From a virus (lineage: Duplodnaviria; Caudoviricetes): a stretch of 64,000 bases of DNA. The stretch covers positions 128,001 through 192,000 of the IMG/VR virus record IMGVR_UViG_3300011008_000004, one strand, 5' to 3'. The stretch's first letter is position 1, and each line of letters opens with the position of its first letter. The position numbers and the translations under genes were made by a program. Positions 20,534 to 36,482 of this stretch are shown here, piece after piece. The notes under the pieces were generated by a model. It worked only from the letters and a program-made list of their open reading frames with translations, did no database searches and was not told the DNA's origin.

Positions 20534-22174
20534 TTATTGATTCATTTGTTTATTAGCGAGATTTATTAGACTTTCGTCTACAGTATCATCATGCCAAGCA
20601 TCTCTCGTTAAAGGCTCGACAGATTCAGTTACTTTAAATCTAACATCTTTACGATCATTAGCAAATGGTAACTTGTTAACATTAATTTGATAGTCTCTAA
20701 TACCTTCACAAATTTTATCTATATCTGCAAAAGAATAATTTTCAGACAATCTATTTTTAATTTCATTAGCTGAAACTCTTAATTGTCTTGCCTTAGAATC
20801 TATATATCTGTCAACAGCTGTATTAGCTATTTTTTGATATTTCTCTGCAATAGATTTCATTTTGCTAATCTTATCAGAGTATTCTTTACTCTTAATGATA
20901 GCATTTTTCTTAGCTTCCTCTAAATCTTCTTTTAAAGAATTATTGGTTGCTTTAATACTTTCAACTAACTTTCTTTCAGTAGCTAAACTTTCTTTTAAAC
21001 TATGTATAGTCTTATCTTTAGATGCGACTGACTCATTTAAAATAGTTTGTTTACTTGCTTCAGATTTTTTAGCTTCAAGCATTTGTCTAATTTTAATATT
21101 CTTTTGATTGATAATTCTATCTTTTGTCTTTAATTGTTCATTAAGTTCAGCAATAGTCTTATCTTTCTCTGATATATCTTCACTAGACTGTTTAACTTTA
21201 CTTTGAAGATTAACAACTTCAGATCTTAAAACTTTAGAATTTTTACTTGATTCACTTAATTCAACTGTAGAAGATTTAAATCTTCTAAGTTCTTCTTGCA
21301 ATTCTGCTTCTTTCGCATCGTGAACTGATAGCTTTTCTTGTAAGGAAATAAGCTAATCTTTTAAAATTTTGTTTTGTCTTAATTGTTCTTGCAATTCTTT
21401 AACTACTTCTATTCCGTTATCATCGGCTACAGGTTTGTCATCGACTGCTTCAATCTTCTCTATATTCGATTCAGATTCAACTTTCGTTTCTTCTGATTTT
21501 TCGACTTTTTTATTTTCTTCTAAATCTATACCTATTTCTTTTAAAGCTTCAATCATTACTTTTTTATCATTTTCATTTTTAGCTTTAGCTATAGATTCAG
21601 TTAAAACCTTTTCTAATGTTTTGCCTTTCTTTTTAGTTTGTAAAGATTCTGTAACATATTGTAAACGAGCTTCTTTAACTGCTGGAATCAATACAACATC
21701 AAAACATTCAAAATTATATGTATCAGGATCTACTGATTCTTCACCATTATAATCTTCAATAGTTTCACCAGTTCCTCTTGAAGAAATACCTACAGTACTA
21801 CCATATTGACATAATGTATTTAATATATTGCCACATGGTGTATCTAATATATCTAAAACAGCATAAAGCTTATTGTCTTTACCACGTTTAGGCATTTCAG
21901 GCATTGATACCGCTACTTTTTCGATATCAAGCTCTGTTCTATCTTCAGGGTGTCCTAATTCACCATAACATACTTTATTTTTAAATTTTTCCTGAGTTAA
22001 TGGATCACTAAAAACCTTTTCCCATAATTGCTCAGAATATCTACGTCCATTTCTTGTAGGAAAAGCTATATCAGCAACAGGACCAACTAAACGAGCAAGT
22101 ATTTTTCTAGCTTTCATTTCCTCTGCAGATAACTTTTTATATTCAAATTTAGGTGTATTTAAACTTTCTAACAT
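20534..22174 (-). CDS. Prohead protease (gp21-like) fused to a coiled-coil scaffold domain (546 aa, 1 TAG)
   Basis: NGRRY, YGELGHP, ILDTP.G, GISSRG.G and FDVV..PA motifs; continues in frame through TAG 21353-21355 into ORF 20534..21301. Confidence 0.88.
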
Positions 22175-22868: not shown

Positions 22869-24794
22869 TTAGAAATTACTTGAATCAGTAAAATCTAAAT
22901 TTAAATCAGCTGGTCTTGGAAGTGGTTGAATTGAGTCATTAGTTTCAACTGGCCCTTCTATTTCAACTGGTTCTTCTATATTTTCTTCAGGTTCAGACCC
23001 TATGTTATCAACAACTTGATCCATAGGCTCATCTATACTCATATTTAAATCTAATGAATCATTGTCGTCTACATCACTAATCTCATTAGTAGTATCATCT
23101 TCAGATTTAGGTTCTTTTTGTTCTTCTTTTTCAGCGGCCATAGCATCTATAGCGTCTTGAATAAGCTGCATTGCTTCACCATCATTAACAATGCCTGACA
23201 ACAATGTTTTAGTAATCTGTAATTTAGTAACTTCGTCTGTAATGCCTTCTAATAATTGCATAACATCTCTTGTAACAGATACTTTATTCTGTAAGTTACT
23301 ACGTCTATCAACTTCTTCTTGAGTTGTAGGTGCTACCATATGTAATTCAAATTTATTTACGTATTCAGTTAAACCAGCGTCTATACACATTAAGTTTATA
23401 GCATCTGTTAATGCTTGCATTAAAGCATTTTGATTATGTTTAACTGTCTTAGCATATCTACTTGATTGTAATGCTAATGAAGATCCGCCATTAAATCCTG
23501 CAGCATCATCAGTATCACCTAAGAATTGTTTAGGAATTTTTATACCTGCGTATAATTTATTCTTAAAATAGTTAATATCATCTAAGCCTTTAACGTTAGG
23601 ATCACCGCCAATTTCTTTAGTGTCAATATTTCCTACGCCACCATGTGTAGGAATATAAACGTTATTTTCAGTAGGACCAGCATTATTATATTCAGTTAAT
23701 GAACCACCAGCATTTATAGCTGTTTTTTGCTCCATTAAAGATTTAATACCTTGTAAGTGTGGTCCAACATTTTCTTTTGGCATATCACCTACTTCAACTT
23801 GAATAACTCTTACAATAGATGATTTAGTTACTCTGTTAAGTAGCATTGAATTTTCAAGTAAATTCATTTCACGCCATATTTTATATTGTGAATAAAATAC
23901 TGATTGACCACGTTTTACAGTGTAGTTTAAATCTTTTCCTTGAGTACCATCTAATTGATCATTATCAGGTATAAAAATACTAACTTCTTCAGGAGTTCTA
24001 GTTGTATTATCTTCTAAAACGGCATGAACAAAGTCTCCTGCTCCGTGTAAATCAACGTCATTTTTATTGAATCTATATTTAAACATTGAAGAATACATAC
24101 CTTCATTAGCTCTTAAATCAGCATTAGTGCTATTTAAGTCAGCTTCTACGTAAGCGTATGTTTTACCATGTTTAACTAATTCAAATATTTTTGCAGGATT
24201 AGGCTACATTTCAACATAACCAGTGTAATGATCATTGGGTGAGTATGCAATTATATTTACGTTTTCATTTAATTGTTTTCTTTCTTCAACTTTATTACCA
24301 AATAATTCATCATCTTCATAATCAGATTGTCTATATAATCTTAAGTATAGGTCACCGTATTTACATAGACTTAGCATCCACTTGTATGCATTCTTATCAG
24401 CATTCATTGTGTCTAATAAATATGTTACATATTGCGTTACGTTGTCATCTGCGGATTCACACCAAATTATTTTACCGCTGTCATTATATTCAGTACCGTC
24501 TTGTGCGTATATTTCTAAAGCTGAAGCAATACGACTATCTTCACACATAGTGTCAATCATTTGATACATCTAGTCTCTGCGTTGAGATACACTAGTAAAA
24601 GACTATATAGAACTAATATCTAAAACTTCAGTTGATCCTTCATTTACAATATTAGTTAAAATAGTATTTTTAGTATCAATACCTATATTAGCCTAAGGCT
24701 TAGGCATTGCTTTAGGCTTCTTATTATAAATATTTTTATTATCTACAAATGCAGAATCTTTCTCTGTATTTAATACACTGTCGTTATTTGGCAT
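22869..24794 (-). CDS. Portal protein (T4 gp20-like), TAG=Gln
   Basis: LLENSMLLNR, VEVGDMPK, DINYF.NKLYAG.KIPK and KYGD.YL motifs; two track ORFs plus the N-terminus join in frame. Confidence 0.9.
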
Positions 24795-24807: not shown

Positions 24808-26826
24808 TTATAAAACGATAATACCTTGAGATAAATACGCTCTATTCCAATCTTCTTCACTTATCTCTTCTTTTTCTTGAGCAATGCTATTATACTAACC
24901 CATTGTTCTCTGTAGTTCTTCTTCGAATTGTCTATTCATCTCAGCGACCTAAGATGATTGACTTGCAGAAGAACTTACTTGTTTAATAATATCAAGTGTC
25001 TCACCGTAATCAAATGCATATTGCTCTGCAAATTTGCTAGCTGTGAATACTGATCCACATACTGCGTCGAGTACGTCCTTGTGTCCATTTGCAGGGTGAT
25101 CTACTTTACCACTATTTATATTTCTTTCAATCTAAACAAATTCATCAAATAATCGTTCAGATTTATACATTACAAATCTTTTCTCATACACAGAAGATTG
25201 TAAATACTAATATGGTTTGCATATATGATCACTATCAACTCTATCAACTGATAGAATTTCACAATCAAAACCTTCTGCTATTAGTTGTTGTCCAGTGTCA
25301 TAAGATTGGAATGTATCGTATGTAATTTTCTTTATCTTAAATCCGACATTTTTAAGCCATCTTATAAAATTTCTATTCTTTTCAAATGAAATCTATCGGC
25401 CTTTAGGTGCTTTTATACTTGTACTAAAAGCTAATCTAAAACTTAAATCTCTTGCCTATTGATTTGGATCTGTACTAACTTTTTTACCTATTATCCAAGT
25501 TCCAGCAATACCAGTCATATCCCCACTTACTGACATATCTAAATGAATAAATAAAGGTTTACTCATTAGTTCTTTTGGAATATTCTGCATGTCAAAATAG
25601 TTATAATACTAATCAACATCTTCAGAACCATTACCCGTTTCTATTATGTCTGGAAATGGGTTTTTAAAGTCAGGATTTATAGCTTCTGTAACTCTTTCAG
25701 CTGACATGTACTTATTAACAGATGCACTTGATATACCAGCGTAATCGCATAGCATTCTCTCTAAGTCTTCTAACGCTTTTGCTTTAAAATCTATAGGAGC
25801 TGCTATTACTCTATAACCTTTATCTTTATAGAATTGTATATCAGCATCATTAGGTATAACCAAACTTGCCTTATACTTATCACCTACGCCAATATAAAAT
25901 ATTTCATTACTATATGTGCCTTTAGGTTTAACTTCCCAAACAGGTTTATCTACAACTAAAGTATTACTGCCTTCTGTTTCCTATAATGTTTTTATATACT
26001 CTTCCATAAATGATTGCTCACTACGTTTAGAAGAAGCAACACATAACATTGTAGGATTTTTACCCTCATGAACGAATCTGGTTAACATGCCGCCTATAGC
26101 TGTATCAATCATATTCTTTGCTTTTTCTTTCTGTTTATCTATATCTTGATTTCTAATAAAGCTGATTTCATCAAAAAATGCAAAAAATACAGGTTTACCA
26201 ATTACATCGTCTGCTTGAGATCCAATAACTATATTTATTGGATCAGGAGGAACCCAGTAAGGTTGATTATTTCTCTAAGTTATACTTCCTTTTGACATAA
26301 ACCAAGGAGACATCTATATTGTTTTCTAAAACTTACTAATAGCGATCTCTTCTGATAGCGCTAATTTAATATTCATAAAAGCAAATATTATTTTTTCAGT
26401 AAGTTTTATATGATAATAAGATAATGGATCTTTTAAACACATTAAACGATACATTAAATATGTGCCTACTGCACCACAAGCCACTTCAGATTTGCCAATA
26501 CCACGAGCGCCAGACTCAAGTAATGTGTTATAATCAGTATCTATATTATTAGGAAATAATTTCTTTAATATATCTAACCAAAAAGGATACAACTTTAATT
26601 TGCCACTAGCATCTTTCCAAGCTTTTCCTAAGAATCTATCATCTGTTAGAAATGTTTCTATGTCTACAGGGATTTCTTTAAAGTCGTCATAAAGTAAATC
26701 ATCAAAAGTCTATGACTAACCTTTATCTGACATCTCTCCTAAAATCTACATAACCATAGATTTTTCTTGTTCAGATAAATCATTTAAGTTATTTAATTGT
26801 GATATATCTAGTTCATTCGACATCAT
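24808..26826 (-). CDS. Terminase large subunit (at least 14 in-frame TAGs by my count)
   Basis: Walker A GARGIGKS, Walker B FFDEI, ASS coupling motif, nuclease FIHLDMS, ITYDTFQS and HKDVLDAVCG. Confidence 0.9.
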
Positions 26827-29900: not shown

Positions 29901-31931
29901 TTATTGAATTTCGCCATCGTCTATAACTATATCAATAACTGTATAGTTTGTAGCACCATTTAATTTTACTTTTAATTGATTGTTACCAGTACCATCTGAT
30001 ATATATGTTATATCATCAGCTGCTTTTGTAATAGTACCATTACTATCTATGCTTAAGCCGTTACCATTGGTAACTTTAACAGCTCCAGCTGTTCCAGTTG
30101 AGCCTAAAGCCATTGCAACGACACCATTACTATCTATGCTTAAGCCGTTATTATTAGTAATTTTAACTGTACCTAATGTTGAAGTAGTAGCTTTAAACGC
30201 TGAGTTAGAATGATTAGTCCAAGTAGGTGCTGTATTTGCGCCATTGGATATTAATACTTGATTAGATGATCCACTTCCAACAGGAGCATAAATATTGAAT
30301 CCGCCAGTTATACCTAATTCATAGCCATAACGTCCAGTACCAAAATCATTTTTAGGTGTTAAAGTGAAATTTACATCAGATCCAGTATCTGCAGTACCAT
30401 TTATTTTAATTGCAGGGGCTGTACCATTATATCTAAATTCAGCGACTGGGATTTTTACATCATCAGGATTTTTATCATCTGAATATGCGATATTTAAAGT
30501 CTGTTTATGATCAGCGTAGTCATTTTCAGTAGTTTCTATTTTTGATATACCACGTCCATTGATTATTTTAAATACTTTTGTATCTTTTACATATTTACTA
30601 CTATCATCTTTTTGATCGTACTCAATATCATACTCATTCACACCAGAAGATGCATCATTGTATGTGCCATTAAGTTTAACTTCTTTTATACCACGTCCAA
30701 CAATATTATCTAAAGTTATATCCAAACCAAATTTAAGATTTGCTTCGTCTAAATAAACAGTTGTACTACCTGTAGGACTCCAAAGATTTGTTCCTGGATT
30801 CGCTACATTATATGTTACATCTACATCTCTAGCTATTGGAAGGAAATCACCCCTAGTAAATGAACCAGTTGGACCGGTTGGGCCTGTTGCACCTTGAATA
30901 CCCTAACCACCTTGAGGGCCTTGTGGACCTGTAGCGCCTGTGTCACCTTTTACACCTTGTTCGCCTTGAGGACCAGTTGGACCTTGAATACCCTGAGCGC
31001 CAGACATGTCTGTTAAAAATGCAAAGTGTGCGGTATCTTTATCTAACAATGTGGTATTATCTTTTCTTACATATAATCTACTATTTTCTTCTTGTTCAAC
31101 AGAGTTAGCTATTAGAACGAATTTACCTAGATTCACATTAGCATAATCAGCTTCCATCAATTCAACAGAAGAGTATGTTTTATAAATACTAAATCCTTCG
31201 CCTTTATCACCTTTGTCGCCTTTGGGACCAGTAGGACCTTGATCACCTTGAATACCTTGAATACCTTGAGGACCTTGAGGACCAGTTGCACCTATATCGC
31301 CTTTTTCACCTTGAGGTCCGGTTGGGCCAGTAGCACCGGTAGCGCCGGTATCACCTTTTGCTCCAGGAGCGCCATCTTGGCCAGGAACGCCTTGAATACC
31401 TTGAATACCTTGAGGACCTGTAGCTCCAGTTGGACCTGTAGCACCATCTTGGCCATTTATGCCATCAGCTCCAGCGGGGCCTGTTGGACCGGTTATGCCA
31501 TCTTGCCCATCTCTACCGTTTGTACCAGGAGCTCCAGTCGCGCCTGTTGCACCAGTAGCACCTGTAGGTCCTGTTTCGCCTTGAATACCTTGGCCACCTT
31601 GAGGACCTTGAGCTCCTGTAGGACCAATTTCACCTGCAGGACCTGTTGGACCTACTTCGCCTAATTTTTTCCACTCAAAATTAGTTGGAGCTACAGTTAT
31701 AGCGCTTTGTATAAAATTGTCTAATATATATAAGCAGCAATCCTCTTGAACAGACACTATCATACCTTTATATATAGGATAGTATATGTTACCAGCACTT
31801 ACAACTGCCCAAGTGCTTGCCGAACTAAGATCAGATATACTATTAACAGTTTGTCTAGCGTCAAATGGACTAGCTTGTGTTAAATCATACGAAGTATCAA
31901 TAGTTAGGGCAAATTCATCTAATTTTCCCAT
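29901..31931 (-). CDS. Collagen-like fibre protein (TAG=Gln)
   Basis: Long G-X-Y tracts; the two track ORFs join via TAG 30903-30905 inside a collagen repeat. Confidence 0.85.
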
Positions 31932-35046: not shown

Positions 35047-35071
35047 AAAAGACGTAGATATCTACGTCTTT
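35047..35071 (-). terminator. Palindromic hairpin/terminator after the tRNA
   Basis: AAAAGACGTAGA-T-ATCTACGTCTTT near-perfect palindrome. Confidence 0.65.
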
Positions 35072-35135
35072 ATTATGTCTTATTACAGACAATCACTATA
35101 AATAGTAATGTATTTAGCTATATATTTTATAGTTA

Positions 35136-35233
35136 TGGCTGGGGTGGAGCGATTCGAACGCTCACATCACGCTTCAAAGGCGCGCTTCCTACGATTTTAG
35201 AGATCGCTTTCTTACCAATTAGAATACACCCCA
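35136..35233 (-). tRNA. Amber suppressor tRNA-Gln-like (CUA) carrying a second anticodon-like arm (UUG); 98 nt, CCA encoded
   Basis: TGGGGTG TA TTCT AATTGGTA AGAA A GCGAT CTCTAAA ATCGT A GGAA G CGCGC CTTTGAA GCGTG ATGT GAGCG TTCGAAT CGCTC CACCCCA G CCA. U1-A72, G2-C71, G3-C70 and G73 match bacterial tRNA-Gln. Confidence 0.9.
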
Positions 35234-35238
35234 ATATT

Positions 35239-35258
35239 TATATATATATATATATATA
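35239..35258. repeat. (TA)10 microsatellite in the tRNA leader/promoter
   Basis: Pure TA dinucleotide run 5 nt upstream of the tRNA 5' end. Confidence 0.85.
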
Positions 35259-35276
35259 CAAAATAGAAAGCATAGT

Positions 35277-36482
35277 TTATTTAACTATGCTTTCTCCTAA
35301 TTTATCTTCTAACCATTTTACATCAATATAGAATTTCTGATTATAAGCTTCTTGATAATCTTTTAATTCTTCTATATTTTTATAAGCCTTTTTAAATAAT
35401 TCTTCGGCTTCTTCATACTTACCTTCCCAACACTTAGCATCAGCAATTATTTGCAAAGCTTTCCATTCTTTAGTTGTCCAAGGTTGAAGTCTCCAGTCTT
35501 CTAAAATTTTAGCATCTTTACTCATATTATCTAAAACTTTATATACTTGTGTGTACTTACCTTGATAAGCTAACATTTGTGCTAGTCTAATGTACGAATC
35601 TATAATTGTTTTATCAAAATTTATAGCCTTTCTAAAGTAAAATTCGGCATCTTCAAATAAGCCTATTTCATTATAGTACGTCCCTAACGCGATACAAATA
35701 ACTGCTCTCATCATAATGTTATTATCATTTATTATTTGCATTCTAGCATAATATTGTTGTGCATATTTTATCGCATTTTGGTAGTCATATCTAAATGAAT
35801 ACTCTCTTTGTAGATAGAATAGTCCATAGTTATCTGTGGGATTCTCATCTACTCTTAATTGTAATAAGTTTAAATAACTTCCTCTAGATTTAGTATGGTC
35901 TGGATAATGATGTAAATAAATTTTATTAGAATCTAAATAATAGCAACCTTGATAATTGTAATTATCTCTATCTAAAGTTAATTCTTCATGAACTGGATAT
36001 CTCCACTTCCAGCCTTTTGCTTGAACTGCTTTATCATACCAGAATACGCTTAATGGATTTCCTAATTCATCATGACTCCAAGCATATTTATAAAATATTC
36101 TATCAAAATTAGGATGTTCAAATATACACTGTCTATAATCGTCCCAGAAATCTTTATCTAATATTTCATCGATATCTGTGCAGATTAAAGCATCACAATC
36201 TTCTGGAATTAATTTCATAGATTCATTTCTTGCTACATCGAATCTCCATGGTTTGATTTCTTGTTCTGCAATTATTAACTTATTTTTAAATTCTGGAAGT
36301 TCTTGTTTTTTCTTAAAATATGTGTAATTAGAATCATCTTTTTTAGTAATTAAAACAGTTATATAGTTTGCTGGCTTCATGCTTTCAAGCCATCTATCTA
36401 TAAATTCTTCAGGTTCTGATGCACACATTGCATAGCAACATATTTTAACGTCTTGATATGAATTGAAGTTTTTATTTGACAT
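35277..36482 (-). CDS. GT2-type glycosyltransferase with C-terminal TPRs
   Basis: PWRFDVARNES, CTDIDE, W.YPVHE and HYPD.TKSRGSYL.LL motifs, then TPR helices. Confidence 0.85.
   Translation of the reverse strand: MSNKNFNSYQDVKICCYAMCASEPEEFIDRWLESMKPANYITVLITKKDDSNYTYFKKKQELPEFKNKLIIAEQEIKPWRFDVARNESMKLIPEDCDALICTDIDEILDKDFWDDYRQCIFEHPNFDRIFYKYAWSHDELGNPLSVFWYDKAVQAKGWKWRYPVHEELTLDRDNYNYQGCYYLDSNKIYLHHYPDHTKSRGSYLNLLQLRVDENPTDNYGLFYLQREYSFRYDYQNAIKYAQQYYARMQIINDNNIMMRAVICIALGTYYNEIGLFEDAEFYFRKAINFDKTIIDSYIRLAQMLAYQGKYTQVYKVLDNMSKDAKILEDWRLQPWTTKEWKALQIIADAKCWEGKYEEAEELFKKAYKNIEELKDYQEAYNQKFYIDVKWLEDKLGESIVK

Follow-up and report, generated by a model that had tools for sequence, protein, structure and literature searches.

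A phage amber suppressor tRNA with a glutamine-type pseudo-anticodon arm in its variable region

The DNA analysed here (the window, 64,000 nucleotides (nt)) comprises bases 128001-192000 of a 214,257-bp IMG/VR record that has direct terminal repeats, is rated complete and represents a T4-like phage. On its minus strand, at 35136-35233, lies a 98-nt tRNA gene that has a CUA anticodon in the normal position and, in its variable region, a second hairpin that copies the anticodon arm of tRNA-Gln. The same architecture is found in phage suppressor tRNAs of many lineages, in which readers of UAG carry a Gln anticodon loop and readers of UGA carry a Trp anticodon loop. We think it probable, with room for doubt, that this natural pseudo-anticodon arm shows Gln identity nucleotides to the host charging enzyme and that the suppressor receives Gln by this route.

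The 98-nt gene and the reading of TAG

The gene is the single tRNA called by ARAGORN in the window (98 nt, minus strand, anticodon CTA). It matches Rfam family RF00005 with 54.2 bits (gathering score 29) over model positions 1-71, and the model accommodates 24 extra nt, which follow the anticodon arm, as a variable-region insertion. RF00005 alone reaches its gathering score in the Rfam scan of the locus. In the encoded molecule the acceptor stem is of 7 bp, GG is present in the D arm, the anticodon arm consists of a 5-bp stem and a 7-nt loop, and the T arm has the loop GTTCGAAT. Its parts are as follows, from 5' to 3' on the minus strand.

35136-35233 (-): tRNA gene, 98 nt, anticodon CUA, encoded CCA (ARAGORN; Rfam RF00005)
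5' start (-): acceptor strand TGGGGTG, then TA (sequence)
35209-35224 (-): D arm, with UUCU at 35221-35224, loop AAUUGGUA and AGAA at 35209-35212 (sequence, fold, alignment); as DNA, in the part-by-part breakdown of the sequence, TTCT / AATTGGTA / AGAA, then A
35191-35207 (-): anticodon arm 1, GCGAU / CUCUAAA / AUCGU, then A; CUA at 35198-35200 reads UAG
35186-35189 (-): GGAA, part of the purine-rich linker AGGAAG, where it repeats the D-stem 3' strand and is able to pair with UUCU
35168-35184 (-): hairpin 2 (pseudo-anticodon arm), CGCGC / CUUUGAA / GCGUG; UUG at 35175-35177
35164-35167 (-): 3' linker AUGU, a 4-nt variable loop in both folds described below; AUGU, UAU or GUGU in relatives
3' end (-): T arm GAGCG / TTCGAAT / CGCTC, then CACCCCA, G and CCA (sequence)

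The minimum-energy structure, fold A (-29.3 kcal/mol), has CUA at the anticodon position, and its variable region forms the UUG hairpin. UUG is confined to the loop of this second hairpin, and the loop, CUUUGAA, is the exact anticodon loop of a phage tRNA-Gln. The last U of the AUGU linker may form an A15-U48 Levitt pair, which would give the linker a tertiary role. The first-pass annotation of this DNA had divided the central part of the gene into two 23-nt units, unit 1 at 35212-35190 (AGAA-A-GCGAT-CTCTAAA-ATCGT-A) and unit 2 at 35189-35167 (GGAA-G-CGCGC-CTTTGAA-GCGTG-A), and had noted that either could be deleted to leave 75 nt. Both statements are exact on the sequence, as is its list of Gln-type acceptor elements: U1-A72, G2-C71, G3-C70 and G73 are all present (5' TGGGGTG, 3' CACCCCA-G-CCA). 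The two units are identical at only 9 of 23 positions. The bacterial tRNA-Gln identity set used for these comparisons was taken from PMC9976931; the YUG at positions 34-36 and the G10-C25 pair expected of a sense tRNA-Gln are absent from the gene, which has CUA and U10-A25. The gene shows neither a group I intron in its anticodon loop nor a bulge-helix-bulge motif at the insert; the insert is of 23 nt, follows the anticodon arm and matches no Rfam intron family.

TAG is shown to be a Gln codon in this phage, and the gene is of the code-15 suppressor type. Cover by long open reading frames (ORFs) rises from 68% to 88% when TAG is read as sense, and 230 in-frame TAGs are distributed over 70 of 204 ORFs. 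In a 672-amino-acid protein of the virion module (24808-26826), Q makes up 816 of the 1652 residues that 118 homologues align to its 14 TAG columns, and six of these columns are invariant or nearly invariant Q; Q is found at 11 of the 14 in the closest homologue, and E makes up 3.7% of the aligned residues. The genome has two CUA tRNAs, and the alignment of TAG with Gln does not assign the responsible one. The portal gene, with four in-frame TAGs, gives a mixed signal, Q at one column and mostly E at two, and it is the 14-TAG protein that settles the code as Gln. At the two portal columns Glu is found in 96 and 75 of 119 homologues, respectively; the simple reading of this is a replacement of Glu by Gln, and a more exotic one would be that Glu-tRNA is incompletely amidated.

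Cognate anticodon loops in phage suppressor tRNAs

The survey of the two-armed family covers IMG/VR. The scan required only the loop CUCUAAA, a spacing of 25-45 nt, a T loop and CCCA, and left the variable region unconstrained. Together with the window it yielded 16 distinct Gln-type CUA tRNAs with long variable regions, from about 12 lineages and some 24 contigs. All 16 have a variable-region hairpin loop with YUG, mostly of the form CU-YUG-A-A/C. The loop is CUCUGAC in L020/L022, L042, the L029 group, L031/L036 and L043; CUCUGAA in L026, L028/L041 and L045; CUUUGAA in the window and L038; CCCUGAA in L030/L039; GUCUGCU in L024; and UCUGA in L018/L019/L023. U35 and G36 are invariant among them, and position 34 is C or U. 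Genuine phage tRNA-Gln genes show the anticodon loops CUUUGAA, CUUUGAC and CUCUGAA. The window tRNA is a typical member, in which a stop anticodon is combined with a cognate anticodon in U33/A37 context (CUUUGAA). Loss or free drift of the UUG loop in relatives had been named beforehand as a refutation, and the retention of YUG in 16 of 16, with covarying stems, indicates selection on the Gln loop.

The mimic loop is restricted to suppressors. When loop 1 was left free and the mimic was required, every true double-arm match proved to have CUA in loop 1, and the remaining matches were normal tRNA-Gln genes with a chance upstream TGGGG. The control was a set of 28 distinct tRNAs of Gln type whose anticodon is a sense YUG and whose variable region is long, and none has YUG or CUA in the variable-arm loop (16/16 versus 0/28, Fisher p = 2e-12). 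The p-values range from 7e-9 to 2e-12 across controls and overstate independence, since the sequences are related, but the pattern is all-or-none across many lineages despite this kinship. The reverse arrangement, YUG in the canonical arm and CUA in the extra arm, was not found among long-armed Gln-type tRNAs. A pattern scan with two fixed loops 16 nt apart and a T loop gave only a chance match (L001), and L055 and L056 are likewise chance matches.

A parallel family reads UGA. An equally anticodon-blind scan of the variable region in Trp-type UCA tRNAs (A1-U72, G73) gave 29 distinct sequences with long variable regions, and 25 of these have CCA, the Trp anticodon, in the extra loop (CUCCAAA, UUCCAAC or GUCCAAA), as against 0 of the 16 Gln-type tRNAs. 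Because the mimic occurs only in stop-codon readers and has this Trp/UGA parallel, the extra loop is best described as a suppressor-specific copy of the cognate sense anticodon loop.

Long extra arms between the anticodon and T arms are otherwise a feature of class II tRNAs (Leu, Ser and bacterial Tyr), in which the stem starts directly after position 45 and the loop is usually of 3-5 nt. Class-II-type CUA tRNAs with other acceptor stems were also recovered (L049-L054), and these have variable-arm loops of 4-6 nt on a stem that directly follows the anticodon arm. The 98-nt tRNA differs from them in its 6-nt single-stranded linker and its 7-nt anticodon-type loop; with its 5-bp stem and Gln-type acceptor, it is not a class II tRNA.

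Seven distinct sequences of 97-100 nt (window, L020, L042, L024, L029, L034 and L031; alignment A2) form a long class that has a full second unit, including a replacement for the D-stem 3' strand, as does the window tRNA. Short-class Gln members are 88-94 nt long and have hairpin stems of 2-5 bp. In the long-class alignment, anticodon arm 1 is 100% paired, with compensatory changes in relatives, and hairpin 2 is 100% paired in the seven sequences, 4 of its 5 pairs having changed on both sides. Pairing in the normal D stem reaches 96%. For the alternative D stem, which joins columns 10-13 to columns 46-49, it is 100% in all seven, with both-side changes at three pairs and the pairings UUCU-GGAA, GCUU-GAGC and GUCU-AGGC. 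The first-pass annotation had proposed that TTCT (35224-35221) can pair with AGAA or GGAA, and the full pairing and covariation of the alternative stem bear this out. Its further claim that both stems are selected, and are not a fresh duplication, agrees with six other phage sequences that keep the architecture with compensatory changes, and complementarity of the D strands that was kept while the rest of the units diverged completely again argues for selection rather than fresh duplication. A 564-nt contig of an independent study (run X2) spans 35102-35612, has no difference listed inside the tRNA and differs at about 3% of positions in the flanks; this contrast is a mark of purifying selection, which we count in favour of a function for the mimic in charging. 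It also disposes of the concern that two tRNA genes had been fused in assembly.

ARAGORN misses three of the seven long-class sequences (L024:3481-3579, L029:10551-10649 and L031:2669-2768), all of which fold as clean cloverleaves, so routine annotation undercounts suppressors in recoded phages.

Several related tRNAs were seen in the same surveys. The sense Gln-type tRNAs, which combine an ordinary UUG or CUG anticodon with a class-II-like long variable arm, number at least 28 distinct phage sequences of 86-96 nt; they were found in L137-L203 (for example in the L153:1482-1537 region, L181, L193 and L198), and the variable arm ends in a GNRA-like loop, UUUAC or other loops. As tRNA-Gln of bacteria belongs to class I, a long-armed sense tRNA-Gln is unusual. 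A 146-kb relative has an 85-nt tRNA (L009:866-950, plus strand) in which a Leu-like class II body (GCCGAGUGGCGAAAUUGGUAGACGC) bears a UUG (Gln) anticodon. Three UCA tRNA-like genes (L118, L130 and L131) have long GC-rich variable arms (GGGCGGGGUGACGAGCCUCGCC) without the CCA mimic, and could be selenocysteine-type tRNAs in phage contigs. The D arm GUGU-AAUGGUA-GCAC is common to short-class Gln CUA tRNAs (L028, L041, L043) and Trp-type UCA tRNAs (L102, L108), which suggests that the two mimic-bearing families are related or exchange bodies.

Charging of the suppressor and alternative explanations

The elements by which GlnRS of E. coli recognises its tRNA are the acceptor stem, G73, the 10-25 pair and the anticodon, with important roles for U35 and G36; mutation of the anticodon lowers kcat by up to 10^4-10^5 (PMC9976931). 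The identity of tRNA-Trp for TrpRS resides in C34, C35, A36 and position 73, and U1-A72 matters for GluRS2 and amidotransferases (PMC9976931). A CUA anticodon is without G36, and a UCA anticodon is without C34. The positions that are invariant in the mimics are exactly the anticodon identity nucleotides, U35 and G36 in the Gln family and C34, C35 and A36 in the Trp family, and the simplest reading of this coincidence is that the arm is shown to the anticodon-binding domain of a synthetase. The tRNA-synt_1c domain, which is the catalytic domain of GlnRS and GluRS, was not found in the complete genome of the phage, so charging must use a host enzyme.

In the mechanism that we favour, the CUA arm in the normal anticodon position decodes UAG as Gln, and hairpin 2, which copies the anticodon arm of tRNA-Gln and is attached in the variable region through a flexible purine-rich linker, would offer to the anticodon-binding domain the identity nucleotides that CUA does not have, above all G36, together with U35. 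The host enzyme would be GlnRS, or a non-discriminating GluRS followed by GatCAB, and the suppressor would thereby be loaded with the amino acid of the codon family from which it came. Two designs could bring the mimic to the enzyme. One, common to all classes, would be the flexible linker itself, with 5-7 unpaired nt on one side of the hairpin. The other would be open to the long class. A second D-stem 3' strand accompanies the mimic arm there and lets the molecule refold into a second cloverleaf, fold B, with the Gln arm in the canonical position, and this may be a route by which the mimic reaches the enzyme. That a synthetase binds the mimic, that charging gains by it and that fold B is populated are predictions from the sequences.

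Several observations weigh against this mechanism, and some concern the geometry of the complex. As monomeric enzymes of class I, GlnRS and GluRS come to the tRNA from its D-arm, minor-groove side and leave the variable region facing solvent, so the mimic in fold A is not obviously within reach. The tRNA has U10-A25, and not the G10 that is important for E. coli GlnRS. The same phage has an ordinary 75-nt CUA tRNA without a mimic, and other genomes carry both kinds (the two are directly adjacent in L020/L022 and also coexist in L045), so the mimic is not indispensable for suppression. Fold B would remove the problem of reach, but nearest-neighbour energies make it weaker than fold A by 2-4 kcal/mol in every one of the seven long-class sequences, short-class Gln members show no alternative cloverleaf within 4 kcal/mol, and the linkers of the Trp-type family are purine-rich without repeating the D-stem 3' strand. 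Short-class Gln and Trp-type members keep the mimic loop despite having no second cloverleaf. Being weaker everywhere and absent from the short class and the Trp type, fold B would be at most a refinement of the long class and not the general mechanism.

The first-pass annotation had suggested a tRNA that is charged through UUG and decodes through CUA, and had coupled this to a conformational switch. The division of labour fits the selection on the loop, its restriction to suppressors and the Trp parallel; a switch of fold is not supported as the general route. As a reading in its own right, the switch would have the molecule charged as tRNA-Gln(UUG) in fold B, with the CUA hairpin looped out from the D loop, and refolded to fold A to decode UAG, so that identity and decoding come from two different anticodons on one molecule; fold B might even decode CAA, which would make this a dual-decoding tRNA. 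The reading draws on the covarying capacity of the D-stem 5' strand to pair with both 3' strands in all seven long-class sequences, on L024, in which the alternative stem is better than the normal one (U.G replaces U.U), on the G26.A44-like closing pair and the 4-nt variable loop that unit 2 retains, and on the low likeness of the units elsewhere (9 of 23 positions), by which the D-strand repeat is not a fresh duplication. However, the weaker energy of fold B holds in seven of seven, there are only three D-stem types and hence few independent events, and a purine-rich linker, which the family has throughout (AAAGA and AGAAAA in the Trp type), would match UUCU through its base composition alone. 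The mimics without a second cloverleaf and the missing reverse arrangement count against it as well, and we regard a switch as rather unlikely. Two other suggestions made at the outset, a precursor cut into one of two tRNAs and a timed on/off switch of amber read-through, find nothing in the data to support them.

The extra hairpin might instead bind a modification enzyme or a phage protein, act as a decoy for a host anticodon nuclease, or merely stabilise the tRNA. Long arms evidently have some other use in phages, since 28 distinct phage tRNA-Gln genes have them without a mimic. A structural arm, however, would not keep a cognate 7-nt loop in about 12 Gln lineages and, as CCA, in the Trp type; no conserved partner gene stands beside the two-armed tRNAs; and we know of no nuclease or modification enzyme that is common to the loops of tRNA-Gln and tRNA-Trp and specific to suppressors. 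Such a role seems improbable to us. Least credible is that the second arm is a relic or an artefact, whether a duplication scar, an assembly chimera or an insert that is removed to give a 75-nt tRNA. The normal 75-nt tRNA that is left when either unit is taken out, and the three long-class relatives that ARAGORN misses, would be in keeping with this idea, but the same 98 nt are present in the independent contig, six other distinct sequences keep the architecture with compensatory changes, and the units are alike at no more than 9 of 23 positions. The insert is also far too short for a group I intron, no splice-type motif was seen in the sequence around it, and no non-tRNA Rfam family reaches its gathering score. 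Presentation of the cognate anticodon loop to a host synthetase remains the explanation that we prefer.

Genome context, known systems and implications

The genome has 30% G+C, and nearly all genes are on the minus strand. The tRNA is located in the virion module, and the neighbouring features are listed below.

20534-22174: S77 prohead protease gene
22869-24794 (-): gp20-type portal gene, homologues of which carry PF07230
24808-26826 (-): virion-module gene for the 672-amino-acid protein, with 14 in-frame TAGs
29901-31931: tail-fibre gene
35048-35071 (-): terminator-like hairpin, 10 pairs and a T run, 65 nt past the CCA end of the tRNA
35234-35263 (-): leader TTTTG-(TA)10-AATAT directly 5' of the tRNA, putative promoter region (sequence)
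35265-35295 (-): terminator-like hairpin, 13 pairs and a T run, closing the upstream TPR gene and setting it apart from the tRNA

With terminator-like hairpins on both sides, the tRNA looks like a small transcription unit of its own, and the leader at 35234-35263 is likely to be its promoter. A T4-type late promoter was considered for TATAAATA, which sits 1 nt 5' of the tRNA, and was rejected: the motif is not enriched upstream of genes (22 of its 81 sites in the genome are intergenic, versus an intergenic fraction of 20%), and transcription from it would start within the tRNA. The X2 contig has one gap somewhere in 35102-35612, possibly in the (TA)10 microsatellite. In a relative from a horse-gut metagenome (run X5), the 219-nt stretch 35077-35295, which holds the tRNA and the leader, is swapped for 144 unrelated letters. 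This replacement lies between the two hairpins and indicates that the cassette is exchangeable. A metatranscriptome (run X8) covers 35271-35469 only, which is outside the tRNA.

In the relatives to which the neighbouring TPR gene led (L005-L008), no tRNA is present at the site or within 4 kb, so synteny yielded no homologues. No conserved gene adjoins the two-armed tRNAs, and relatives that keep the TPR gene are without the tRNA; the 3-kb neighbourhood had no BLAST match in the phage collection. Outside the window, at 2.6-11 kb, the genome has a cluster of 10 tRNA genes that includes the ordinary 75-nt CUA suppressor (U1-A72, A73; genome 2606-2680, minus strand) and a tRNA-Gln(UUG) (genome 4011-4085, minus strand). 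A full-length release factor 2 (RF2) is encoded at L134:1414-2514 on the minus strand, genome ~76.1-77.2 kb (TIGR00020, 450 bits, cut-off 370). This factor fits a code-change toolkit in which UAA and UGA are stops while UAG is read as Gln.

In most of these respects the phage resembles the code-15 phages already described, which include crAss-like, Lak and other gut phages (10.1101/2021.08.26.457843; PMC9523058). Like them, it encodes a CUA tRNA whose acceptor stem is of Gln type, its many in-frame TAGs are concentrated in the virion genes, and TAG aligns with Gln; it also encodes RF2, as reported for some recoded phages. The described suppressors have been treated as ordinary tRNAs, whereas the 98-nt tRNA bears a second arm with a Gln anticodon. 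How phage suppressors are charged was stated to be unresolved by Borges et al. (10.1101/2021.08.26.457843). Among suppressors of the supE/su+7 type, supE also has a Gln body with CUA, but has no extra arm.

The closest likeness is to engineered tRNAs. Mukai 2020 (Int J Mol Sci 21:7793, PMC7590224) placed a GUG pseudo-anticodon arm in the V-arm of an amber suppressor and thereby raised histidylation via an appended anticodon-binding domain. Those molecules and the phage tRNA are both amber suppressors in which the variable arm is a hairpin copy of the cognate anticodon arm, and the likeness is architectural only: the tRNAs of PMC7590224 are synthetic, built on a 9/3 allo-tRNA chassis, and belong to a His system in which the synthetase has the appended domain, whereas the phage tRNAs are natural, have a 7/5 Gln (or Trp) body and would need unmodified host enzymes. 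Hairpins with a cognate anticodon that are read by the anticodon-binding domain of a synthetase are also known from the E. coli thrS operator, yeast synthetase mRNAs and an HIV-1 tRNA-like element (PMC9976931, PMC6542539, PMC5113203). The phage arm shares with these a cognate anticodon loop outside the normal anticodon position of a tRNA, and may share the mode of reading. Those mimics act to regulate the enzyme or to sequester it, and they receive no amino acid, whereas the phage mimic is in cis on the tRNA to be charged. A full-text literature search, including the identity review PMC9976931 and the recoding papers, found no natural tRNA with a cognate-anticodon arm or two anticodons. The first-pass statement that there is no described equivalent thus holds for natural tRNAs in searchable papers, with an engineered analogue in PMC7590224, and the natural two-armed suppressor is apparently a new structural variant of phage suppressor tRNA.

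Phages with recoded stop codons are common in gut viromes, and how their suppressors are charged by host synthetases that read the anticodon is an acknowledged question. A suppressor-specific cognate loop, Gln on UAG readers and Trp on UGA readers, offers a concrete and testable answer. The long-class tRNAs that escape ARAGORN (three of seven) may help to explain recoded phages that seem to have no suppressor. If the proposed mechanism is true, these tRNAs would encode their identity in a new manner, one loop being read for identity and another for decoding, and would be a natural precedent for the engineered pseudo-anticodon tRNAs of genetic-code expansion.

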